Shown piece after piece: positions 2,636 through 14,224 of a DNA stretch of 14,224 bases. Within the stretch, counting starts at the first letter, position 1. Every line of letters starts with the position of its first letter. The position numbers and the translations under genes are program-made. Source of the stretch: a virus (Duplodnaviria > Heunggongvirae > Uroviricota > Caudoviricetes); IMG/VR virus record IMGVR_UViG_2565956613_000004, positions 1 through 14,224 of that record; one strand, given 5' to 3'. Under the pieces are notes generated by a model. The model saw only the letters and a program-made list of their open reading frames with translations, did not search any database and was not told where the DNA came from.

Positions 2636-2670
2636 TAAGGTGGTTCCTTGTCAAATGTAAAGGAGCACTT

Positions 2671-2739
2671 GCTCACGTTGACGTAGAAACCCAACCCCTA
2701 TATAGTTGGATTCGGTGAAAGAAAGTCGTTAACGTGAGC
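2671..2739. repeat. nested inverted repeat: 13-bp arms GCTCACGTTGACG / CGTTAACGTGAGC (12 of 13) enclosing an inner CCAAC...GTTGG palindrome
   Basis: Read directly from the sequence; lies in the 660-bp non-coding gap immediately upstream (minus-strand sense) of the 45-aa ORF. Confidence 0.4.
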
Positions 2740-3084
2740 TTACGGCACATGTTTTCGGAACAACATCAGGGAACGGCTAATTCCTTGATGCGGATGGGGT
2801 CTGTAATGCAGACCCTATCTATTAACGTCATGATTGCATCTCAAATTTTCTCCTTATCTTCATTAATCAAAATTCATTTCATTTGTGAAACATCACAATA
2901 TTTAGAAAATGGCCCTCTTGCAAGTGCATAACTTTGTGGATAAATCAGGAAGAAAAAAGTTGATTCTGCGCACGGCAAGGCAGATAAGCTGTGCACAAAA
3001 ATCAATGGGAAAAGAAAAAAAATTAAAAGTTACTTTGCTGGTTAAATAATAGTCGTTACGCAATTGTTCTGGATGGGATTTGAT

Positions 3085-3336
3085 ATGCACGATTGGAATA
3101 TTGCAGCTAAAAGTCAGGAAGAACGGGATAAGGTTAACGTTGATCTGGCTGCCAGCGGTGTGGCGTACAAAGAGCGATTGAACATACCTGTCATAGCTGA
3201 ACAGGTAGCCCGCGAGCAACCAGAGAATCTGCGCACCTATTTCATGGAACGGTTACGGCACTATCGGCAGTTAAGCCTCCAGTTGCCAAAAGGGAGCGAT
3301 CCGGTGTATCAGAACGAGGATGCACCAAAAAAATAA
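3085..3336 (+). CDS. hot: Hot, homolog of DNA polymerase III theta subunit (HolE)
   Basis: Segment [43 protein letters not shown] aligns with E. coli HolE ([43 protein letters not shown]); start placed at the ATG giving MHDWNIAAK (ORF track opens at a TTG at 3064). Confidence 0.8.
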
Positions 3337-3421
3337 CGGCAAGATGGGGGAGAAATGTGATTAGCCCCCAGCGTGGCGCGCCTACAAACCCCGCTTTCAC
3401 AAACTATGCCTTTTCAATGTA

Positions 3422-3441
3422 TACTGTATGAATAAACAGTA
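3422..3441. promoter_or_regulatory. LexA (SOS) box TACTGTATGAATAAACAGTA overlapping a TATACT -10 element
   Basis: CTGT-N8-ACAG with flanking TA, about 17 of 20 matches to the consensus TACTGTATATATATACAGTA; sits 19 bp upstream of the humD start codon. Confidence 0.75.
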
Positions 3442-3459
3442 TCATTGAGGTAAAACGCT

Positions 3460-3849
3460 ATGGGCTTCCCTTCTCCTGCGGCGGATTATGTTGAAAGCCG
3501 AATTTCTCTTGATCAGCAGATAATTAGACATCCTTCAGCGACCTACTTCATGCGGGCAGCTGATAGCCATCACCGTGAGGGAATATTGCAGGGTGCTTTG
3601 CTGGTGGTTGATTCCTCGCTTACTCCGGTTGATGGTTCTCTGCTTGTGTGCGCTATGGAGGGTGAATATCGCATAAAGAGATACAGGAAGTATCCGCGCC
3701 AGCACCTGGAGGATTTAAGCACCGGGAAGAAAGAGGCGTTACCAGTAGATGACGATGGATACACGGGCAGTAATGCTGTTTTTGGTGTGATCACTCATGT
3801 CATCAATGATGCCCGAAGTGGGGAATTTGATGATTGTCCGGTTATTTAA
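3460..3849 (+). CDS. humD: HumD, UmuD'-like translesion-synthesis accessory protein encoded in the already-processed form
   Basis: N-terminus [30 protein letters not shown] matches UmuD' starting at Gly25 ([29 protein letters not shown]); FGVITHV matches UmuD FGVVIHV; GAGG RBS; LexA box upstream. Confidence 0.85.
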   Translation: [129 protein letters not shown]

Positions 3850-3884
3850 GCTGCAAAGTGCTGGTGCTTTATGCCTGTGAAGTT

Positions 3885-3915
3885 TATAATTGTGTACACA
3901 TAACGAGTACACGAG
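3885..3915 (+). promoter_or_regulatory. phd-doc promoter with palindromic autoregulatory operator (TATAAT followed by TGTGTACACA and GAGTACAC)
   Basis: TATAAT at 3885..3890; perfect 10-bp palindrome TGTGTACACA at 3891..3900 and a related GTACAC half-site just before the phd RBS, consistent with known Phd/Doc autorepression. Confidence 0.55.
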
Positions 3916-3921
3916 GTGTTT

Positions 3922-4143
3922 ATGCAATCCATTAACTTCCGTACCGCGCGTGGCAACCTTTCTGAAGTGCTCAACAATGTTGAAGCCGGGGAAGAGGTTG
4001 AAATCACCCGCAGAGGCCGTGAGCCAGCAGTAATTGTCAGCAAGGCTACTTTCGAAGCCTACAAAAAAGCGGCGCTGGATGCTGAATTTGCATCCCTGTT
4101 TGACACCCTGGACTCCACCAACAAGGAACTGGTTAACCGATAA
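3922..4143 (+). CDS. phd: Phd antitoxin (prevent host death), 73 aa
   Basis: [49 protein letters not shown]... recognised as P1 Phd; GAGG RBS before ATG 3922 (ORF track opens at an upstream GTG); stop overlaps the doc start (TAATG). Confidence 0.85.
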
Positions 4144-4523
4144 TGAGGCATATATCACCGGAAGAACTTATTGCGCTTCATGATGCGAATATAAGCCGCT
4201 ACGGCGGCCTGCCGGGAATGTCTGATCCGGGTAGGGCAGAGGCCATTATCGGGAGAGTTCAGGCCAGAGTTGCCTACGAAGAGATCACCGACCTTTTCGA
4301 AGTCTCCGCCACCTACCTGGTGGCTACAGCGAGAGGGCATATATTCAATGATGCCAATAAGCGTACCGCGCTAAACAGTGCGCTGCTATTTCTACGCCGT
4401 AACGGGGTGCAGGTATTTGATTCACCTGAACTGGCAGACCTTACTGTAGGCGCTGCGACTGGCGAGATATCTGTATCTTCTGTCGCCGACACGTTACGTA
4501 GATTGTATGGTTCTGCGGAGTAG
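4143..4523 (+). CDS. doc: Doc toxin (death on curing), Fic-fold kinase, 126 aa
   Basis: Fic-type motif [11 protein letters not shown]; size and position right after phd with a 1-nt overlap; sequence recognised as P1 Doc. Confidence 0.9.
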
Positions 4524-4527
4524 ATTA

Positions 4528-4707
4528 ATGGCACGCAAATACAACAAATTGTCCCGTGAAGCGTTAAAGATGCTTCTTGATGGCGCGAGTCGCCGCAAGG
4601 TAAAGCAATACCTGGTTGGTAAGCAAATTGGAGTCAGGACCGCTATTGCTGTGTTATGCCGTCAGGAAATGGTTGTGCTTAAACAGAGAATGCCGGGCAG
4701 CAGATAA
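4528..4707 (+). CDS. pdcA: small basic protein, PdcA-like (post-doc), 59 aa from ATG 4528
   Basis: ORF track 4507..4707; the ATG at 4528 lies 5 nt after the doc stop with GGAG 8 nt upstream; assignment as pdcA is by position in the P1 gene order as I recall it. Confidence 0.45.
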   Translation: MARKYNKLSREALKMLLDGASRRKVKQYLVGKQIGVRTAIAVLCRQEMVVLKQRMPGSR

Positions 4708-4734
4708 AGCCCAATCAGTGATTAAAGGTGTGAT

Positions 4735-5778
4735 GTGAAAGCCGTAATTACTCCCTTTGTACAGAAAGAGCTTGGCCTCGCCACGTTCAAAGTGGATCAG
4801 GAGGTCAGAAAGCTGGTGGAGGCTGGCCGTAAATTTATTATGGAGCCGGTGCCGCGTGAGTTAATCGAGCACATGGAAGACGGCCTCGTTGTTACCGAGC
4901 AAACCATGGCAACAAATGAGGCGTTGCAGCCGTTTTTTAACAGCGATGAACTGTTTCGCCGTATTGGTGGAATTGACGCGCTGGTGGCGTGGTTGCGTAG
5001 GAAAGAGGGTCAATGCCAGGCCGCAGATCGTAGTTGGTGTGACAACCATATTGTCCACGCTGAACGAGACAATAGCGCGGTGTTGTTGTGCTGGCATCAC
5101 GATAACCATTACCGGATGCGTGGTTTTAATGAGCTGAAAGAAACGCTGCACAATAATCGCGTTAACTGGATACTGGATGTCGCCCGTCAGGAAATGGGCC
5201 TTTCAAATAGCCATGATTTAAGTATTCAGGAGCTGTGCTGGTGGGCTTTCATGCGCAACATGATGCACCTGATGCCGGAAGAAGTCTGCCGCATATCAAT
5301 AAATAAGATGAAGGCTACTCCGCAGGATAGCGGACCTCTGAAAGAGGCGGATATTCGCCCGTATGACGATCGCGCTACAGCATATGTTCAGATGATGGAA
5401 GAACGCGCCGCGCCGATGCGTGCAAAAGTATGCCCTGTGGATGTTGACGCCGACCCTGGCATGGCGCATTTCAAAATACCAAAACTTCAATCGCTAAAAT
5501 TGCCCGAGTACATGGATTTTGTGGCTTCCCGTCCATGCTGTGGCTGTGGAGCTGCGGGAGCTGGCGCTCACATTACGCCTTATATCGTTCGTCATAGTCG
5601 ATTATGCGCGCATGACATTTATGCTGTTCCTCTGTGCCAGTCATGCCAGCGTGATATTGAGCGTGACCGCGATAATTGGGAGAAGACGCACGGTAGGCTG
5701 GCGATGCATCAACGATTGTTCTTTGATTACGCGCTTGGAGTCGGCGCTATCACAAGTCATTCGTCGAGCGTTAGATAA
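4735..5778 (+). CDS. pdcB: PdcB-like protein with two Cys/His-rich putative zinc-binding clusters, 347 aa
   Basis: GTG start with AAGGTG 4 nt upstream; clusters [25 protein letters not shown] and CCGCG...H...C.HD...PLCQSCQ suggest a zinc-finger or HNH-like nucleic-acid-binding fold; name from recalled P1 gene order. Confidence 0.65.
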
Positions 5779-7599: not shown

Positions 7600-9083
7600 T
7601 GGCCAGAAGTTGCGTAACGGATCCACGTTGGCGCGAGCTGGTGGCGCTATATCGTTATGACTGGATTGCGGCCGCTGATGTTTTGTTCGGCAAAACACCT
7701 ACCTGGCAGCAGGATCTGATTATTGAGTCTGTGCAGGAACAGGGTAGCAAGACATCTGTTTCGTCTGGTCACGGTACCGGGAAATCAGACATGACTTCTA
7801 TCATGATCATGTTGTTCATAATCATGTATCCAGGTGCCCGTGCCATTATCGTTGCGAACAAAATTCAGCAGGTAATGACCGGTATATTCAAGTACATCAA
7901 GATAAACTGGGCTACTGCCACCAGCCGTTTCCCATGGCTTGCTGATTATTTTGTTCTGACAGAAACCGCTTTCTATGAGATTACTGGTAAAGGTGTATGG
8001 ACTGTAGTACCGAAGGGCTTTCGTCTGGGAAGTGAAGAAGCTCTCGCCGGTGAACACGCAGATCATCTTCTGTATATTATCGATGAAGCCTCCGGTGTCA
8101 GTGATAGAGCTTTCGGTATCATCACCGGTGCTCTTACCGGACAGGATAACCGCATCTTATTGCTGTCACAGCCTACACGCCCAAGCGGCTATTTCTACGA
8201 TACACACCATAAACTGGCCAAGCGTCCTGGTAACCCTGATGGCGTTTATACGGCGATCACGCTTAACAGTGAGGAATCACCGTTGGTAACGCCAGCATTT
8301 ATCAAAATGAAGCTGGCGGAGTACGGCGGGCGTGATAACCCTATGTACATGATTAAGGTACGCGGCCTATTCCCTAAATCACAGGATGGCTTCCTTCTTG
8401 GACGTGATGAGGTTGAACGTGCAACGCGGCGGAAAGTCAAGATTGCAAAAGGATGGGGCTGGCTTGCATGTGTGGACGTTGCTGGTGGTACGGGACGGGA
8501 TAAGTCCGTTATCAATATCATGATGGTGTCCGGCCAGCGAAATAAACGCCGTGTAATCAACTATCGAATGCTGGAATACACAGACGTTACAGAAACGCAG
8601 CTTGCCGCCAAAATTTTCGCAGAATGTAATCCTGAGCGATTCCCAAATATCACCATAGCGATAGACGGCGATGGCCTGGGTAAAGCAACGGCGGATCTGA
8701 TGTACGAGTATTATGGTATTACCGTACAGCGTATACGCTGGGGTAAAAAGATGCATAGCCGTGAAGATAAGAGCCTGTACTTTGATAAACGTGCTTATGC
8801 CAACGTTCAAGCCGCAGAGGCCGTAAAATCTGGTCGTATGAGACTGGATAAGGGTAATGAAACTATTGAGGAAGCGTCGAAAATCCCTGTAGGGATTAAC
8901 TCCGCAGGTCAATGGAAGGTGATGAGTAAGGAGGATATGAAGAAAAAACTCAACCTGCACTCACCAGACCATTGGGATACATATTGTTTCGCTATGCTGG
9001 CTGATTATGTTCCCCAGGATGAAGTGCTTAGCGTCGAAGACGAAGCGCAGGTTGATGAAGCTCTGGCATGGCTTAATGAATAA
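7599..9083 (+). CDS. pacB: PacB, terminase large subunit, 494 aa
   Basis: P-loop-like [10 protein letters not shown] near the N-terminus; ATG overlaps the pacA stop (TAATG); size and position as for P1 PacB. Confidence 0.9.
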
Positions 9084-9107
9084 CTCATTGACCATGCCGG
9101 ATAGAAA

Positions 9108-9959
9108 CTATTGCGCGCTTTCGGGGTTGTCGTTTACTGGCTGCCCCTTCTTAGTTTTACGGCTGCGCGTAACTGATGCGGCTGATTTGACCTTTTTCTC
9201 TTCGCGAGTGATGGCAATTTGTTTTTTTACATTTTCAATATCTGCCAGGCGATATATTTTTGCCTGCGGCCAGCGGTCGCAGATGATCGGTTCTATAGAG
9301 TCATAAAGGCTAAATTTTGCTTTCTCGAATTCACCGTTGATGATGATTCCATCACGGAGAGTTTCATCGCAGATAAACACACCACACAGCGGCACATGGT
9401 AACTAACTGATTTACCATCATTGTAGTTAGGGCTACTGGAAATGTAGTGGACGCGCAGCATTGTTTCGCTAAAGCCGTGTACACGCATACGGAATTTTTC
9501 ATCCTCCGGGTACTGCTTCATTAGCTCTTTTGTTGCTTCCAGGTTCTCTATGTATTTCGCACTGTGCTCATTGATCCCCGCGCTTTTCTGGATGCGAATG
9601 TCCTTATCAATCAGATGAATAATGCGGCCAGCGGTCATGTTGACGCTGTTCACAGCTTCTGTCTGATAAGTCGTAACCTTACGCACACCGCGAAGGATGT
9701 TAGGCACAGGATATAAAATAGTCTTTGGGATATTGAGGTCTGGGTACTGTTCCAGTTCCCGCGCCATTAAAGTCCATTTATCAATTTCAGCCTGAATGCT
9801 GTCCGTTTCTTTGAACGGTAGAACGACAACCGGGCGTACAGGACGACCGTCGCTGGCGGCATCAACGTGTTGGGCGCGTGCAACAGCTTTTTTTAGAAAG
9901 AGATCCCTGAAGCTGACGAACTCCTGGTACAGTTGTTCGCCGTAGACATAATTTATCAT
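9108..9959 (-). CDS. c1: C1 repressor of lysis (primary immunity repressor), 283 aa
   Basis: 283-aa protein beginning MINYVYGEQLYQEFVSFRDLF recognised as P1 C1; GGAGGAGGA RBS; preceded by coi and operator sites; matching operators occur elsewhere in the window. Confidence 0.9.
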   Translation of the reverse strand: MINYVYGEQLYQEFVSFRDLFLKKAVARAQHVDAASDGRPVRPVVVLPFKETDSIQAEIDKWTLMARELEQYPDLNIPKTILYPVPNILRGVRKVTTYQTEAVNSVNMTAGRIIHLIDKDIRIQKSAGINEHSAKYIENLEATKELMKQYPEDEKFRMRVHGFSETMLRVHYISSSPNYNDGKSVSYHVPLCGVFICDETLRDGIIINGEFEKAKFSLYDSIEPIICDRWPQAKIYRLADIENVKKQIAITREEKKVKSAASVTRSRKTKKGQPVNDNPESAQ

Positions 9960-9981
9960 TGATCCTCCTCCAGAATTGACA

Positions 9982-10024
9982 TGGCCAACAACTCACAGCG
10001 GATTACACTGGGAGTTGTTGGCCA
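9982..10024. repeat. perfect 13-bp inverted repeat TGGCCAACAACTC / GAGTTGTTGGCCA with a 17-nt loop, between coi and c1
   Basis: Read directly; lies in the coi-c1 intercistronic region just upstream of the c1 RBS; no T-run follows on either strand. Confidence 0.4.
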
Positions 10025-10069
10025 CCATTATAGAAGGATCCAACGAAAATAATAGATTTATTAGTGCAT

Positions 10070-10279
10070 TTATTGTGAGTCTGGCTGGTTAGTGGCCATG
10101 AGATATTCGATTGTGTCAGTGAGATCATCCAGGTCGTCTTGGGTGATGCGGTACTCCTGATTGGATATCTTTGAGTAGTGTTCAGCAATGGCGCGGGCAG
10201 CGTCGGTTTCGGCAGGGTCTACAGATAAAGCGTTAGAGCAATGTCTAACGTCGTCGATGGTTGGTGGAATGAAAGCCAT
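10070..10279 (-). CDS. coi: Coi, C1 inactivator, 69 aa
   Basis: 69-aa ORF directly upstream of c1 on the same strand, downstream of operator sites; size and sequence recalled as P1 Coi. Confidence 0.8.
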   Translation of the reverse strand: MAFIPPTIDDVRHCSNALSVDPAETDAARAIAEHYSKISNQEYRITQDDLDDLTDTIEYLMATNQPDSQ

Positions 10280-10517
10280 AATTATGCCTCACTGTATTGA
10301 CAACACAGAGCCTGAAGCTCTGACCTACTGTTTCACCCATGATCCATGCTGGGGTAATCTAACAACATTGCGCTGTGTGTAAGATGAGCAATGCATAGCT
10401 GTAATGCCGTTGTATAAGGTTTCCCTGTTTGCTCATTTCCTTCTGAGCCGCTCTACAACGCTGAAGACACATTAAATAGTGAATCCAAAGTCGTATTACG
10501 AAACGGCGGCAAAACTA

Positions 10518-10847: not shown

Positions 10848-11069
10848 ATGGGATATTCAGCTGCTAAAGTGTCCACTCATATTGAGCTTGAGAAAAACCG
10901 TGGTTACTGGCGGGCAAAAGGGTTTGATCGTGATAGTTGTCAACTGTCATTATCGCGCGGTGAAGAGAAAATAGAACGCACGCGCGGTCGCTGGCGTTTC
11001 TATGACGAGAACCATAAACAGGTAAAGGCAGAGCCGATCCTGTACACTTTACTTAAAACCATTATCTGA
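10848..11069 (+). CDS. hypothetical 73-aa protein immediately upstream of cre
   Basis: ATG with AGAGGTG RBS at optimal spacing; stop 7 nt before the cre ATG, suggesting co-transcription; no recognisable family. Confidence 0.45.
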   Translation: MGYSAAKVSTHIELEKNRGYWRAKGFDRDSCQLSLSRGEEKIERTRGRWRFYDENHKQVKAEPILYTLLKTII

Positions 11070-11076
11070 GTGTTAA

Positions 11077-12108
11077 ATGTCCAATTTACTGACCGTACAC
11101 CAAAATTTGCCTGCATTACCGGTCGATGCAACGAGTGATGAGGTTCGCAAGAACCTGATGGACATGTTCAGGGATCGCCAGGCGTTTTCTGAGCATACCT
11201 GGAAAATGCTTCTGTCCGTTTGCCGGTCGTGGGCGGCATGGTGCAAGTTGAATAACCGGAAATGGTTTCCCGCAGAACCTGAAGATGTTCGCGATTATCT
11301 TCTATATCTTCAGGCGCGCGGTCTGGCAGTAAAAACTATCCAGCAACATTTGGGCCAGCTAAACATGCTTCATCGTCGGTCCGGGCTGCCACGACCAAGT
11401 GACAGTAATGCTGTTTCACTGGTCATGCGACGGATCCGAAAAGAAAACGTTGATGCCGGTGAACGTGCAAAACAGGCACTGGCGTTCGAACGCACTGATT
11501 TCGACCAGGTTCGTTCACTCATGGAAAATAGCGATCGCTGCCAGGATATACGTAATCTGGCATTTCTGGGGATTGCTTATAACACCCTGTTACGTATAGC
11601 CGAAATTTCCAGGATCAGGGTTAAAGATATCTCACGTACTGACGGTGGGAGAATGTTAATCCATATTGGCAGAACGAAAACGCTGGTTAGCACCGCTGGT
11701 GTAGAGAAGGCACTTAGCCTGGGGGTAACTAAACTGGTTGAGCGATGGATTTCTGTCTCTGGTGTAGCTGATGATCCGAATAACTACCTGTTTTGCCGCG
11801 TCAGAAAAAATGGTGTTGCCGCTCCATCATCCACCAGCCAGCTATCAACTCGCGCCCTGGAAGGGATTTTTGAAGCAACTCACCGATTGATTTACGGGGC
11901 AAAAGATGACTCTGGTCAGCGATACCTGGCCTGGTCTGGACATAGTGCCCGTGTCGGTGCCGCGCGAGATATGGCCCGAGCCGGAGTTTCTATACCGGAG
12001 ATCATGCAAGCTGGTGGCTGGACCAACGTAAATATTGTCATGAACTACATTCGTAACCTGGATAGTGAAACGGGGGCAATGGTGCGCCTGCTGGAAGATG
12101 GCGATTAG
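11077..12108 (+). CDS. cre: Cre tyrosine site-specific recombinase, 343 aa
   Basis: Near-identical to P1 Cre as I recall it (MSNLLTVHQNLPALPVDATSDEVRKNLMDMFRDRQAFSEHTWKMLLSVCRSWAAWCK...); C-terminal catalytic region with HSARVGAARDMARAG and GGWTNVNIVMNYIRNLDSE; differs from my recalled P1 sequence at two positions (IAEISRIRV, APSSTSQ). Confidence 0.97.
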   Translation: MSNLLTVHQNLPALPVDATSDEVRKNLMDMFRDRQAFSEHTWKMLLSVCRSWAAWCKLNNRKWFPAEPEDVRDYLLYLQARGLAVKTIQQHLGQLNMLHRRSGLPRPSDSNAVSLVMRRIRKENVDAGERAKQALAFERTDFDQVRSLMENSDRCQDIRNLAFLGIAYNTLLRIAEISRIRVKDISRTDGGRMLIHIGRTKTLVSTAGVEKALSLGVTKLVERWISVSGVADDPNNYLFCRVRKNGVAAPSSTSQLSTRALEGIFEATHRLIYGAKDDSGQRYLAWSGHSARVGAARDMARAGVSIPEIMQAGGWTNVNIVMNYIRNLDSETGAMVRLLEDGD

Positions 12109-12125
12109 CCGTTCATTTGCTCTTT

Positions 12126-12142
12126 ATTGCTCTAATTATTTG
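12126..12142 (+). promoter_or_regulatory. C1 operator-like site ATTGCTCTAATTATTTG with a partial copy (ATTTGCTCT) just upstream
   Basis: 14 of 17 match to consensus; 18 bp after the cre stop and 17 bp before the 103-aa ORF; resembles the Op2 arrangement that controls ref in P1. Confidence 0.55.
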
Positions 12143-12158
12143 ATATTTATGGTTACAC

Positions 12159-12470
12159 ATGCGGAAGGATTTCAAAATAGACGGAAAATATGTGGTGCTG
12201 TCTGTAAGCTCTCAAATTCAGTCACCATCTGTCATTGTCACCGTAAAGTTGAGCGATAGGATGCCTGATATCGACTCGATATCTGTTGCGTTCCCCGTTA
12301 AAAGCATGCGGAGTGCTGAACATTTTGTGATGAATGCAACGGAGGAGGAAGCACGGCGCGGGCTTACTAGAGTGATGGCGGAATTTGGCGAACTCCTGGG
12401 TAAGGTAAACAATGCCCTTTCAATCAGTTCAGCAAGATCCAAAGCGTTAACAGCTTCCATGATGAAATAA
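12159..12470 (+). CDS. hypothetical 103-aa protein behind a C1 operator (no Cys, one His)
   Basis: ORF track; ends immediately before the hairpin at 12476..12496; weak RBS; preferred over the overlapping minus-strand ORF, which needs a TTG start and spans the hairpin. Confidence 0.4.
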   Translation: MRKDFKIDGKYVVLSVSSQIQSPSVIVTVKLSDRMPDIDSISVAFPVKSMRSAEHFVMNATEEEARRGLTRVMAEFGELLGKVNNALSISSARSKALTASMMK

Positions 12471-12475
12471 AAAAA

Positions 12476-12496
12476 AGCCTGGCAAGGAGCCAGGCT
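12476..12496 (-). terminator. rho-independent terminator for the minus-strand antirepressor-like transcript (stem AGCCTGGC / GCCAGGCT, loop AAGGA, U-run on the minus strand)
   Basis: Plus strand reads A8-GCCTGGC-AAGGA-GCCAGGC; on the minus strand the hairpin is followed by a T8 run; on the plus strand no T-run follows. Confidence 0.5.
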
Positions 12497-12618
12497 GCAC
12501 AAAAGAGCGGGGTTGTATTCCGCATCCAATCAATCAAGAAGGAGTATAGCACACAGGTACTGAAGAGAAAAAATGTGATTCGCGATAGATAAAATAGCCA
12601 CTATTGTTATAATTAATT

Positions 12619-12699
12619 GCCATAATTGAGTTATGGCTTTAGTCAACTACGAAGACATTGCCATTATAGACTCCGTGACATCATTGGCGGCCGAAAGGC
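12619..12699 (+). ncRNA. candidate ~80-nt small RNA: extended -10 promoter (TGTTATAAT at 12605..12613), 5' hairpin GCCATAA-TTGAG-TTATGGC, 3' intrinsic terminator
   Basis: All elements read directly; no convincing ORF (the 72-aa ORF 12633..12851 runs through the terminator); complementary to the 3' UTR of the convergent minus-strand mRNA. Not tested. Confidence 0.2.
12676..12699 (+). terminator. strong rho-independent terminator on the plus strand (GGCGGCC-GAAA-GGCCGCC followed by TTTTTT)
   Basis: Perfect 7-bp GC stem with GAAA tetraloop and a T6 run, read directly; ends the cre-side transcription unit and/or a short transcript from the promoter at 12605..12613. Confidence 0.7.
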
Positions 12700-12711
12700 C
12701 GCCTTTTTTAA

Positions 12712-13770
12712 TCATTCAGCCGCCACCGGTTTTAACAAGCCAGCATCGAGCAGTTTACGCGTCAACCACTGTTGGCCTTTCCCCGTTAATTGAGGCGTCA
12801 GCCGTATCTGATAGCCATCTTCATCATCCAGCACCACTTCTTTCACTGTGAAATATCCGGCGTTTATGTACTGCTGAAACGGTACATTTTTACGTCCGCC
12901 GGACGCAATCAGGATGCCGTTCTCCCGTAACCAGGTAAACAACGCGTTTTGCTTAAGCCCAACAACCTTTGCAAAATTTCCAATCAGGATCCCCTTGGCC
13001 CCTGATACCCGGTCGGCAAAATCGACTTTAGGGGCGGCGGCCACCAGCTGCTGATTTAGCTGGTGGGCTTTCTGTTCCAGAAGTTGCTTTTGTTCAGCCA
13101 GCTCGGCAGCCAGGCGCAGAGCTTCGGGGAGTGTTTGGGGAATCACTGGAGAAGCAGTGCTAGCCTGCTGCAATTCCTCCAGTTTGTCGATCAGCGAACG
13201 GCGGACCGCTTTTGACTCGCGCGCGGCAACTCTCAGGGCTTGTTTGTAGGTCATGGAGATAGTTTCAGATGTTGTGTTGTTTAATTTTTGCACTACGAAA
13301 ATTTCGTAGTACTCACCATCCAGTTCATCCTTAACTCTGGCAATAAAATCATTATTGCGAACTGGTTTTTCGCTACATAATTTCCGCGCTTCATTGACCA
13401 TCTTTAACAGCGTCTGGCTGTCGATTGTGTCTCCGGTGTTGGGGATAGCATCCATGGCCGTTGCTGGTGTGGTTGCTGTCAAAGGCTTTGTAACGACAAC
13501 ATCTGGTTTGCTTGCTTTCATTCTGTGTGCCTCCTTGCGTGTTTCGGCTGCGACGGTTGCGTAATTCAGATGCCCCTGTTCGAGCAGGTATTCGCGAATA
13601 TCAGACAGCAGGATACGGTGAACCGCGTTCTTGTCCTTTCTCCGGTAAAGTTGTTTGGTGATCATGAAGTAGTTGGCAATAACACCCGGTATATCCCTGG
13701 TACTGATACAGGCAGTGTGCTGTTCAATTGCCTCAATCATCTCTTCACGGGTGACTAATGACGTTCTCAT
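12712..13770 (-). CDS. antirepressor-like protein with a C-terminal KilA-C/ANT-type domain, 352 aa
   Basis: Strong GGAGGG RBS 4 nt before the ATG; C-terminal segment FADRVSGAKGILIGNFAKVVGLKQNALFTWLRENGIL...NVPFQQYINAGYFTVKEV...TPQLTGKGQQWL resembles phage antirepressor C-terminal (KilA-C/ANT) domains; the N-terminal ~80 aa may be Rha-like, which is uncertain. Confidence 0.75.
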   Translation of the reverse strand: MRTSLVTREEMIEAIEQHTACISTRDIPGVIANYFMITKQLYRRKDKNAVHRILLSDIREYLLEQGHLNYATVAAETRKEAHRMKASKPDVVVTKPLTATTPATAMDAIPNTGDTIDSQTLLKMVNEARKLCSEKPVRNNDFIARVKDELDGEYYEIFVVQKLNNTTSETISMTYKQALRVAARESKAVRRSLIDKLEELQQASTASPVIPQTLPEALRLAAELAEQKQLLEQKAHQLNQQLVAAAPKVDFADRVSGAKGILIGNFAKVVGLKQNALFTWLRENGILIASGGRKNVPFQQYINAGYFTVKEVVLDDEDGYQIRLTPQLTGKGQQWLTRKLLDAGLLKPVAAE

Positions 13771-13988
13771 AGTCCCTCCTGAGCAGAAGCGTTAACAGGG
13801 AGGCACCAGTAACTGAGAGAATTGCGCGAATCGGTAGAAAAACGGGCGGAGAAAATGCAGGGAGCATCCGGAAGCTGAGAACGTGCCTCATCTTCTGTTG
13901 GTGCGATAACGAAGTGATAGTGACGTTTTTGACAAGAATAGAAGCGCCAGATGAATTCAGGGCGTGCGCAAGGATTGGCATTAACCAT
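13767..13988 (-). CDS. possible 73-aa ORF upstream of and overlapping (ATGA) the antirepressor-like gene
   Basis: ORF track; GAGG 9 nt upstream of the ATG; the stop overlapping the downstream ATG is forced by the frame, so support is weak. Confidence 0.25.
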   Translation of the reverse strand: MVNANPCARPEFIWRFYSCQKRHYHFVIAPTEDEARSQLPDAPCIFSARFSTDSRNSLSYWCLPVNASAQEGL

Positions 13989-14224
13989 AGTTACGGCCTC
14001 ACTAACAGGTTTAACAACCTGCTACCCGCTGCTAAACAGGTGGCAGGACGTGACGGGGTTAGCAGACTGGCGTTAGTGAAACCAGCAGGCCGAAGCCTCC
14101 CCATCACGCCCCACCATAATTTGGGCGTAACGCGGTTTTACGGACACAAAAATACCGCAATATCGGATATCTGCGGTTGTCCACACTAACATTCAGGCTG
14201 CTAAACCCGGTCGCAGAATTTGCT

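Follow-up and report, generated by a model that had tools for sequence, protein, structure and literature searches.

The 103-aa ORF directly downstream of cre in the window (the whole 14,224-nt stretch of DNA analysed here, from viral record IMGVR_UViG_2565956613_000004) is almost certainly the ortholog of phage P1 gene c8, and it occupies the canonical place of c8 in the order c1-coi-lox-cra-cre-c8. The best overall explanation, to which we assign a probability of roughly 0.7, is that this c8 ortholog is a real plus-strand gene whose probable promoter lies within a predicted C1 operator. The identity of c8 was already known: the P1 genome record of 2004 lists the gene, and hundreds of database entries contain it. 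New are the conserved core of the operator-like site together with a minority allele in P1 and P7, distant C8 homologs in synteny, and a confident fold model. An earlier note on this DNA had described an operator-like site before a gene of unknown function, at a variable position where cra or ref was expected. The site and the ORF are borne out, the unknown gene dissolves into c8, and the remaining value is for P1 specialists.

Identity and neighbourhood of the ORF following cre

The genes and elements on both sides of the ORF are listed below.

9108-9959, minus strand: c1 repressor gene, cognate for the operator; product identical to P1 C1.100 at 282 of 283 residues
10848-11069, plus strand: cra (cre-associated ORF, 73 aa), placed and sized as P1_gp002; PHROG 804, E=8e-35
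11077-12108, plus strand: cre recombinase gene, 343 aa (ORF list; cre annotated under the BLAST matches); stop codon TAG at 12106-12108
12159-12470, plus strand: c8 ortholog ("lysogeny establishment protein"); match to P1 C8 and PHROG 1968
12468-12496, minus strand: intrinsic terminator with U-run 12468-12475 and hairpin 12476-12496 (terminator scan; fold)
12586-12619, plus strand: relic ref promoter/operator region (alignment to P1 Oref 1962-1978; promoter scan)
12686-12703, plus strand: terminator/attenuator hairpin of the former ref leader (terminator scan and fold)
12712-13770, minus strand: Ant-like antirepressor gene, 352 aa, in the place of ref (Pfam ANT/KilAC, E=2e-31; PHROG 63, E=1e-116)
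13767-13988, minus strand: icd-like ORF of the leftward module, 73 aa (annotation in plasmid pB19429_2)
14036-14121, minus strand: C4 antisense RNA gene of the leftward module (Rfam RF01695)

The ORF list with translations confirms a product of 103 aa with no Cys and a single His. This product shares 91% amino acid identity with P1 C8 (P1_gp004, YP_006473.1) over 103/103 residues (E=1e-70), and the statement that it matches nothing therefore does not hold. P1_gp004 lies at 1518-1829 in P1 and has the same length. The ORF also matches PHROG 1968 (E=1.8e-52, profile positions 7-109 of 110), and 135 close homologs bear the name "lysogeny establishment protein". At the DNA level, the c8 region is 88% identical to P1 1411-2069 and 94.6% identical to RCS47, with c8 annotated beneath the match. 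The c8 ATG lies 50 nt past the cre stop on the same strand, as it does in P1 (1467 to 1518) and RCS47, and c8 is annotated directly 3' of cre in P1, P7, RCS47, SJ46 and others. The window C8 resembles those of P1 and P7 (AAQ07479.1) in length, position and 3' hairpin; the window differs from P1 in having no ref after c8.

The P1 record itself marks the assignment of the c8 locus to this ORF as putative ("establishment of lysogeny, putative"). As cited in PMC8201110, the clear-plaque genetics of Scott (1977) tied c8 to lysogeny establishment. Transcription of c8 has been seen in P1vir infection (PMC8201110), and plaques form without the gene, which is non-essential for plaque formation (CRISPRi EOP 1.5; PMC10695390).

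Searches of the ORF against Pfam, NCBIfam, PADLOC and PDB sequence profiles returned no match. A hit to Fibulin_C (E=0.013, under its cut-off) was regarded as noise. The Pfam RecA_dep_nuc/HNH family of Ref (PF16786) was not matched, consistent with the earlier view that the ORF is not Ref, and neither was PHROG 804 (Cra). The lack of Pfam, NCBIfam and PDB matches, together with the true absence of ref from the window, is what could be said for a new gene of unknown function, under repressor control, that displaced cra or ref at a variable post-cre position. The match to P1_gp004, a known P1 product with the same offset from cre, already refutes that reading and leaves it next to no probability. 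It also presupposed a wrong gene order: the order in P1 is cra-cre-c8-ref, with cra upstream of cre in the window too. Finally, 86 of the 87 related loci carry an intact c8 of 103 aa, whichever gene follows it.

Among the loci examined, the gene following c8 is ref in 68, a leftward ant module in 14 and something else in 4. The variable position among P1-like elements is thus after c8, not c8 itself. In the window, a leftward C4-RNA/icd/ant module stands where ref would be. The ant region shares about 80% DNA identity with the P1 immI region, the icd-like ORF is annotated as "host cell division inhibitor Icd-like protein" in plasmid pB19429_2 (100% identical), and the C4 RNA match to RF01695 scores 70 bits (gathering score 45; E=3e-12). 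The hairpin at the 3' end of c8 (dG -17.7 kcal/mol, z -4.4) has its U8 tail on the minus-strand RNA only and terminates leftward transcription, not c8; it is 100% conserved in P1 and RCS47 except for the length of the A-run.

Remnants of the ref control region are still present beyond this terminator. The relic keeps a P2ref-like promoter (TAGATA-16-TATAAT with TG), and at 12603-12619, where Oref would lie, decay has left ATTGTTATAATTAATTG, which scores 13.9 bits against 20.7 bits for P1 Oref with a weight matrix (PWM) made from 20 annotated P1 operators. Windle et al. (1988), as cited in PMC10695390, mention attenuator control of ref in their title. Homology to P1 stops just past the 12686-12703 hairpin, and no ref homology was found in the window beyond 12709.

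Coding strand of c8

Several features place the coding sequence of c8 on the plus strand. Besides remaining intact, the ORF has variable sites distributed 25/15/61 over the three codon positions, and in-frame deletions of 3 and 6 aa are seen. Replacements in the plus frame are conservative (mean BLOSUM62 +0.2 versus -0.3 expected), and those in the mirror frame on the minus strand are not (-0.5 versus -0.4 expected). The start codon is preceded by a possible ribosome-binding sequence.

12151-12155, plus strand: weak Shine-Dalgarno-like GGTTA, 3 nt before the c8 ATG (column counts)

The corresponding sequence is GGTGA in 42 of 43 haplotypes; the window differs from the P1 C8 locus in carrying GGTTA. 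Both are taken as Shine-Dalgarno-like on account of their presumed complementarity to the 3' end of 16S rRNA.

A mirror ORF of the same length (103 aa) lies on the minus strand at 12218-12529, and the coding sequence could in principle be this ORF, or neither frame might code. The antisense frame is indeed open through the c8 overlap in all haplotypes (stops in 0/52). The two frames share third codon positions, crude synonymous/non-synonymous counts are nearly alike (50/40 versus 50/43), and a third-position test of transversions by degeneracy gave no separation of the strands. Against these points, conservative replacements occur in the plus frame only, and coding on the minus strand would require second codon positions to vary more than first (25 versus 15). 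Translation of the minus ORF would also cross the terminator hairpin and U-run, and a 1-nt indel in the A-run of RCS47 separates its start from its body. The remote homologs and the structural model described below back a plus-strand protein, and the conserved promoter/operator sequence points toward the plus ORF. Coding by the minus strand or by neither frame is consequently highly improbable, and the plus-strand gene is retained in what follows.

A conserved C1 operator-like site before c8

The intergenic region between cre and c8 contains three elements relevant to regulation.

12109-12125, no strand assigned: variable spacer from the cre stop to the operator-like site (71% mean column identity, 43 haplotypes)
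12126-12142, plus strand: C1 operator-like 17-mer ATTGCTCTAATTATTTG, proposed name Oc8 (3 mismatches, 21.7 bits, conserved core)
12128-12136, plus strand: extended -10-like TGcTCTAAT within the 17-mer, candidate c8 promoter (nonamer arranged as in PkilA/P53)

The 17-mer begins at the 18th base past the cre stop and is a strong C1-operator match, in agreement with the operator-like site of the earlier note. It differs from the C1 consensus ATTGCTCTAATAAATTT (quoted in PMC8546580) at three positions, with positions 1-11 perfect. Five sites with ≤3 mismatches occur in the window, versus 0.10 expected from shuffles, and the remaining four are the annotated P1 operators Olpa, Oc1a, Oc1d and Oc1e, identical in sequence to those of P1. 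The PWM score of Oc8 exceeds that of 8 of the 20 annotated operators, among them Oref (20.7 bits), Olpa (19.1 bits) and Orlf (17.4 bits). Across 43 haplotypes, the core (12126-12137) is 98.8% conserved, compared with 71% in the adjoining spacer. An adjacent partial copy had also been proposed, namely ATTTGCTCTTT (12115-12125). It scores -20.8 bits, falls in the least conserved intergenic stretch and is common only to two loci of identical sequence, and is thus attributable to chance. The likeness drawn to an Op2 pair controlling ref in P1 fails as well: Op2a and Op2b are Oref and Omat, not one ref-controlling pair.

The site shares individual features with established P1 operators. Its first 14 nt (ATTGCTCTAATTAT) are the same as those of Orlf (Op55), the T at position 12 is found in Orlf, Oref (Op2a) and Ossb (Op21), and the G at position 17 is found in Oref and Olpa. 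Like Oc8, Orlf, Oref and Ossb are monovalent asymmetric 17-mers.

Position 7 distinguishes the window and most wild relatives, which carry the operator-consensus C, from P1 and P7, which carry A. Among 92 IMG/VR contigs, C is present in 85 (~92%) and A in 7. In the P1 and P7 sequence, ATTGCTATAAT, this A breaks the near-invariant C7 of the operator. Even so weakened, the P1 allele is the top unannotated PWM site in the entire 94.8-kb P1 genome. The curated P1 and P7 records show no operator upstream of c8, and Oc8 lies outside the annotated set of 20; in these two phages, C1 control of c8 may be weak or absent. What is new relative to these records is a conserved, predicted C1 site before c8 in most wild P1-like plasmids, not in laboratory P1 and P7.

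The same sequence has promoter features. The TGcTCTAAT nonamer would place a candidate c8 transcription start near 12143. In P1, the 17-mer of OrepL-PkilA (formerly Op53/P53) starts with (A/T)TTGCTCTAAT, as the c8 site does, and the PkilA/P53 -10 TCTAAT lies inside the operator OrepL with a poor -35, in a like arrangement. If TGcTCTAAT acts as the -10 inside the 17-mer, repressor site and -10 are one sequence both at PkilA/OrepL and at the c8 site. The two differ in their 3' halves (TTATTTG at the c8 site versus AAATTT in OrepL), and Op53/P53 is an annotated, established operator and promoter, whereas the c8 site is predicted. A generic two-hexamer promoter scan called nothing at 12126-12142. 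The TGcTCTAAT within this site equals the PkilA/P53 -10. The P1 and P7 records instead predict a c8 promoter (Pc8) within cre, with a 20-bp spacer. Its equivalent in the window (TTGTCA at 12035-12040 and GATAGT at 12061-12066) was judged weak because of that spacer. A further candidate, -35 TTGCTC and -10 TATGGT at 15-bp spacing, which would yield a leaderless mRNA, was not adopted owing to its poor spacing and lack of support.

These features raise the alternative that ATTGCTCTAAT is conserved as the extended -10 of c8 and not for C1 binding, in which case c8 would be constitutive or weakly regulated and expressed in the lysogen too. P1 and P7 have a perfect TGcTATAAT at this place; they lack the operator-critical C7, and their records annotate no operator there. 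Conservation across the 43 haplotypes also runs on past the 17-mer up to the c8 ATG, and this unbroken conservation means that the footprint alone cannot tell an operator from a promoter plus leader. The column pattern, however, speaks for C1 binding: all operator-core positions are kept, even A1 and T2 (43/43 haplotypes), to which the extended -10 does not reach. An A at position 7 would yield a perfect TATAAT, yet the promoter-weakening C prevails in the contigs. The PWM score above that of eight accepted operators argues in the same direction. Moreover, the P53/PkilA sequence serves as both -10 and operator, and the two roles are therefore not exclusive. Conservation for promoter function alone appears rather unlikely, and we consider it probable that the predicted Oc8 17-mer is a functional C1 operator.

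A site expected to bind C1 ahead of the ORF makes repression of c8 in the lysogen, and derepression upon induction, plausible. If Oc8 works as an operator, the C1 regulon gains c8, and the sole P1 gene whose annotation concerns lysogeny establishment specifically and nothing else would acquire a regulatory logic, being on before C1 accumulates and off afterwards. The C-to-A allele (TGcTATAAT) of textbook P1 and P7 would then have hidden this C1 control, and the c8 locus of laboratory P1 and P7 would be atypical. This would matter for quantitative models of the lysis-lysogeny decision of P1, which rest on these two phages.

Distant homologs, fold model and possible role of C8

Homologs of C8 with 24-43% amino acid identity were found in distant P1-like elements in c1-cre-c8-ref synteny, and the family occurs only in P1-like phage-plasmids. 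Alignments to the remote homologs span residues 5 to about 90. At 24-33% identity, the conserved block consists of a C1-like repressor, a Cre-like integrase, zero to three genes and the c8 homolog. When three distant c8-homolog loci (L090-L092) were scanned with the P1 operator matrix, no convincing P1-type operator emerged. A comparison of the repressor-integrase intergenic region with the c8-homolog operon for lineage-specific operator repeats gave chance-level repeats only.

The persistence of the c8 homolog in the repressor/integrase block at such low identity might suggest that C8 is an accessory of Cre/lox recombination, in cyclisation or dimer resolution, and not part of the immunity circuit; its link to the establishment of lysogeny would then run via plasmid formation. 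Cre, however, needs no partner in vitro or in heterologous hosts. At the distant loci, 1-3 unrelated genes, including a colicin cassette, lie between the integrase and the c8 homolog, and the block also holds ref and the repressor, so that synteny does not single out Cre. A role as a Cre accessory is accordingly considered distinctly improbable.

In the favoured reading, the extended -10 inside the predicted C1 operator would be the c8 promoter, as P53/PkilA is in OrepL. C1 on the predicted operator would hold c8 off in the lysogen. The gene would be transcribed briefly after infection, before C1 builds up, and again after induction, a timing that would suit a factor biasing the lysis-lysogeny decision. 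Such behaviour would be analogous to that of lambda cII and cIII, which are establishment factors transcribed from repressor-controlled early promoters. C8 is likewise proposed to be an establishment factor whose own transcription would be shut off by the maintenance repressor; the lambda proteins and C8 share no sequence or fold relationship.

A C8 model built from a shallow alignment reached a pLDDT of 64, too weak for interpretation. The AF2 model rebuilt with the distant homologs reached a pLDDT of 84.9 and a pTM of 0.70, and this confident model presents C8 as a small basic protein with four beta-strands and two helices. Members of the C8 family are mostly basic, and C8 has a basic pI and a basic tail. 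Nothing significant came out of Foldseek structure searches with the C8 model (lowest E-values 0.13 in the PDB and 0.036 in BFVD). The top PDB matches of both models were PUR-alpha/PC4/Whirly-type folds (E at least 0.13; TM 0.38 when query-normalised and 0.58 when target-normalised). The beta-beta-beta-beta-alpha folds of the PUR-alpha repeat, PC4 and Whirly have four antiparallel strands followed by a helix, as in the C8 model; C8 adds a second long helix and shares no sequence similarity with them, and the resemblance is a lead only. Work on C8 function can start from the confident model, the distant homologs and the conservation of the c1-cre-c8-ref block.

The basic pI, the basic tail and the non-significant PUR/PC4-like resemblance suggest that C8 may act by binding nucleic acid or an immunity protein. 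Every specific proposal for the biochemistry of C8 is doubtful at best. A more complete proposal combines a genuine Oc8, a minority allele in P1 and P7 that is operator-down and promoter-up, and a C8 family of PUR/PC4-like basic proteins acting on immunity nucleic acid; as a whole it is improbable. Under this proposal, C8 could, for example, act on the ref leader/attenuator, on C4 RNA or on the targets of this RNA.

Identity, coding strand and start of the gene after cre

The window comes from a P1-like (Punavirus) phage-plasmid; in it, phd/doc and lpa/pacAB are followed by c1, coi, lox, cra, cre and then the region of interest.

Genes at the cre locus
10848-11069: cra, a 73-aa ORF upstream of cre, the same gene as P1 cra
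11077-12108: cre, stop codon TAG at 12106-12108
12159-12470, plus strand: c8, a 103-aa ORF with no Cys and one His

The size and the Cys and His content of the 103-aa ORF, as described in the earlier note, were confirmed, but its product does not lack recognisable relatives as claimed there. The protein shares 91% amino acid identity with P1 C8 over all 103 residues, making it a known P1 product at this position, and matches PHROG 1968 (E=1.8e-52). Nearly all of its 135 close database relatives are named 'lysogeny establishment protein'. In a megablast search against phage records, 12050-12720 matches P1, P7, RCS47, SJ46, phiW39 and others with 86-95% identity, and the annotation under the match reads 'c8', 'C8' or 'putative lysogeny establishment protein'. 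The ORF is best explained as c8, a real gene in the immC-cre block that encodes a small basic protein. This gene was known before, and public plasmid records contain the identical DNA sequence. The additions made here are modest and of specialist interest: an unannotated conserved candidate operator, an atypical P1/P7 allele, distant homologs and a fold model. An 84%-identical C8 is encoded by a 411-bp contig labelled Acinetobacter idrijaensis (JQCU01000589.1), which, from its length and content, probably represents contaminating DNA of an enterobacterial P1-like element.

The expectation of cra or ref directly after cre was misplaced, because the P1 order is cra (207-428), cre (436-1467), c8 (1518-1829), ref (2077-2637) and mat, with the same gene order in RCS47 and P7. 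The post-cre position is also not where these elements vary. Of 87 related loci, 86 keep an uninterrupted 103-aa ORF, and the remaining one has lost just the stop codon; the variable position lies after c8, where the next gene is ref in 68 of the 87 loci, an ant module in 14 and something else in 4. A novel gene in a variable slot, as first proposed, has negligible probability against the match to P1 C8.

The function of c8 is given as 'putative' in the P1 record and as 'putative regulator of lytic functions' in the P7 record. PMC8201110 ties c8 to establishment of lysogeny through the clear-plaque genetics of Scott 1977; in the same paper the gene is transcribed in the course of P1vir infection, at a higher level in a dksA host. 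PMC10695390 gives P1_gp004 as non-essential for plaque formation, at a CRISPRi EOP of 1.5, and names no previous experimental source.

A wrong strand or a spurious ORF was considered, since a mirror ORF (12218-12529, minus strand) is likewise open in 52 of 52 haplotypes. Variable sites among the related loci are distributed 25/15/61 over the codon positions of the c8 frame. Third codon positions of the two frames coincide, so crude synonymous/non-synonymous counts are uninformative and did not separate the strands. Replacements, however, are more conservative than random in the plus frame only (mean BLOSUM62 +0.2 vs -0.3 expected; minus frame -0.5 vs -0.4 expected), and reading the minus frame would make second positions more variable than first positions. 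Translation of the minus ORF would cross a terminator hairpin and U-run, and RCS47 carries a 1-nt A-run indel within it. In an exhaustive profile search, homologs at 24-43% identity align with the plus-strand protein from residue 5 to about 90. The coding strand of c8 is the plus strand, and the contrary reading is very improbable. The distant homologs keep the N-terminal strands (F5, I-D-G motif) and align from residue 5, which supports the full 103-aa reading from 12159 over the 69-aa (start Met35) and 91-aa (start Val13) gene models given by many automatic annotations of public data (P0018-P0119).

A candidate C1 operator upstream of c8

The resemblance of the 17-mer to a C1 operator, described in the earlier note, was borne out. 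The 17-mer has 3 mismatches to the consensus ATTGCTCTAATAAATTT (quoted in PMC8546580) and scores 21.7 bits on a weight matrix built from the 20 monovalent C1 operators annotated in NC_005856.

The cre-c8 intergenic region (mean column identity among 43 distinct haplotypes)
12109-12125: spacer, 71%
12126-12142: C1 operator-like 17-mer ATTGCTCTAATTATTTG
12126-12137: operator core, 98.8%
12143-12158: stretch beyond the 17-mer, 94%

The window holds five sites with ≤3 mismatches to the consensus, vs 0.10 expected from shuffles, and the remaining four lie exactly at the positions of P1's annotated Olpa, Oc1a, Oc1d and Oc1e. The matrix score exceeds those of OpmgRb, Oref, Omat, Oppp, Olpa, Orlf, Oc1c and Oc1b, and the 17-mer agrees with annotated Orlf throughout its first 14 nt. 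The 'adjacent partial copy' reported at 12115-12125 scores -20.8 bits, lies where the intergenic region is least conserved and is regarded as chance. The C1 encoded in the window is identical to P1 C1.100 at 282 of 283 residues, and therefore the same specificity is expected.

Neither the P1 nor the P7 record annotates an operator before c8. Laboratory P1 (1485-1501 of the P1 stretch L001) and P7 (188-204 of L094) read ATTGCTATAAT here, in which C7, present in 19 of the 20 annotated operators, is replaced by A, giving a perfect TGcTATAAT. The P1 allele still scores 17.9 bits, the best unannotated site across the whole P1 genome. Among IMG/VR contigs the C allele occurs 85 times and the A allele 7 times, and the two reference phages appear atypical at this site.

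The operator core also contains an extended -10-like TGcTCTAAT. A promoter at c8 without C1 control would account for this motif and for the P1/P7 allele. However, most elements retain the promoter-weakening C, and A1 and T2, outside the extended -10, are invariant, which argues for selection on repressor binding besides promoter function. PkilA (former P53) of P1, an annotated promoter with a poor -35, has exactly TCTAAT as its -10 hexamer inside OrepL, a direct precedent for one sequence serving as operator and -10. We consider a promoter alone rather unlikely, and estimate roughly 0.65 for C1 binding and repression at 12126-12142. In the favoured reading, with C1 control, transcription of c8 would start from a promoter embedded in the operator; the gene would be expressed after infection until C1 accumulates, kept off in the lysogen and expressed again on induction. 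Such off-in-lysogen, on-early timing, itself inferred, would fit an establishment factor. The P1 record places a predicted promoter, 'Pc8', within cre, with a spacer of 20 bp.

At 12154 the window has T, vs G in 42 of 43 haplotypes, changing the Shine-Dalgarno-like GGTGA before the c8 ATG to GGTTA, and c8 may be translated more weakly in this particular element. Two further sites were noticed in P1. An unannotated operator-like site, ATTGCCCTAATGTATTT (16.7 bits; P1 17166-17182, plus strand; about 12597-12613 of the P1 stretch L088), lies near the darB 5' end and the PdarB/LPpro region, and its 3' half resembles Olpa. Omat (L001 2628-2645) is annotated in NC_005856 on the minus strand with 18 nt, while the plus strand gives its operator-like sequence CATGCACTAATAAATAT; the strand annotation looks like a slip.

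Region downstream of c8

P1 homology continues past c8 through a decayed Oref and the ref-leader hairpin and ends near 12709. The ref gene is absent from the window, and a leftward immI-like module (12712-14121, minus strand), with about 80% identity to the immI region of P1 itself, takes its place.

Features downstream of c8
12476-12496 (with U-run, 12468-12496): hairpin, dG about -17 kcal/mol, U-run on minus-strand RNA only
12586-12703: ref control relic without ref, P2ref-like promoter intact (TAGATA-16-TATAAT, upstream TG)
12603-12619: decayed Oref ATTGTTATAATTAATTG, 13.9 bits vs 20.7 in P1
12686-12703: ref-leader terminator/attenuator hairpin, retained, abutting the stop of convergent ant
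12712-13770, minus strand: ant, Ant/KilAC antirepressor
13767-13988, minus strand: icd-like ORF
14036-14121, minus strand: C4 antisense RNA (Rfam RF01695, 70 bits)

Because its U-run is on the minus-strand RNA only, the hairpin at 12468-12496 is read from sequence as a terminator of leftward transcription, plausibly here of the c4-icd-ant operon, and not of c8, for which no intrinsic terminator of its own was found. The hairpin is just as well conserved in P1 and RCS47, whose neighbouring ref points rightward. The c8-ant arrangement is shared by 55 PLSDB plasmids over at least 80% of 12000-14224, with pB19429_2 at 100% identity. Further ant/icd copies occur elsewhere in pB19429_2, indicating that antirepressor modules are duplicated in these elements.

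Distant homologs and predicted fold of C8

The distant homologs lie in a conserved block comprising a C1-like repressor (PF27008, minus strand), a Cre-like integrase, 0-3 other genes, the c8 homolog and further genes, with Ref (PF16786) downstream in 2 of the 3 elements examined. A role of C8 as a Cre accessory, which the integrase neighbour would suit, is regarded as unlikely. In one distant locus (L091), the c8 homolog has insertions of bacteriocin genes (colicin Ia-type and cloacin/pyocin-S-type), with an immunity gene, on either side (2636-4838 and 8121-10345), one insertion between integrase and c8 homolog and the other beyond ref, indicating that the block accepts cargo.

C8 has no match in Pfam, NCBIfam, PADLOC or PDB sequences. 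With the distant homologs in the alignment, AlphaFold2 gave a confident model (pLDDT 84.9, pTM 0.70).

Predicted secondary structure of C8 (AlphaFold2, residues)
2-7, 10-17, 24-30, 40-46: strands
50-59: helix
from 62: long helix, its end low-confidence

V25, A53, F56, V57, R67 and G68 are invariant, and F5, L14, P46 and A60 nearly so. Foldseek returned no significant match in PDB or BFVD. The top PDB matches, non-significant, are PUR-alpha repeats (E 0.13 or worse; TM 0.38 query-normalised, 0.58 target-normalised), with PC4 and Whirly proteins lower in the list; the best BFVD matches are uncharacterised phage proteins. The family is mostly basic (pI 7.8-9.9 in 21 of 23 members), with a basic, poorly conserved tail. 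Any biochemical mechanism of C8 would be conjectural; these features are compatible with nucleic-acid binding.
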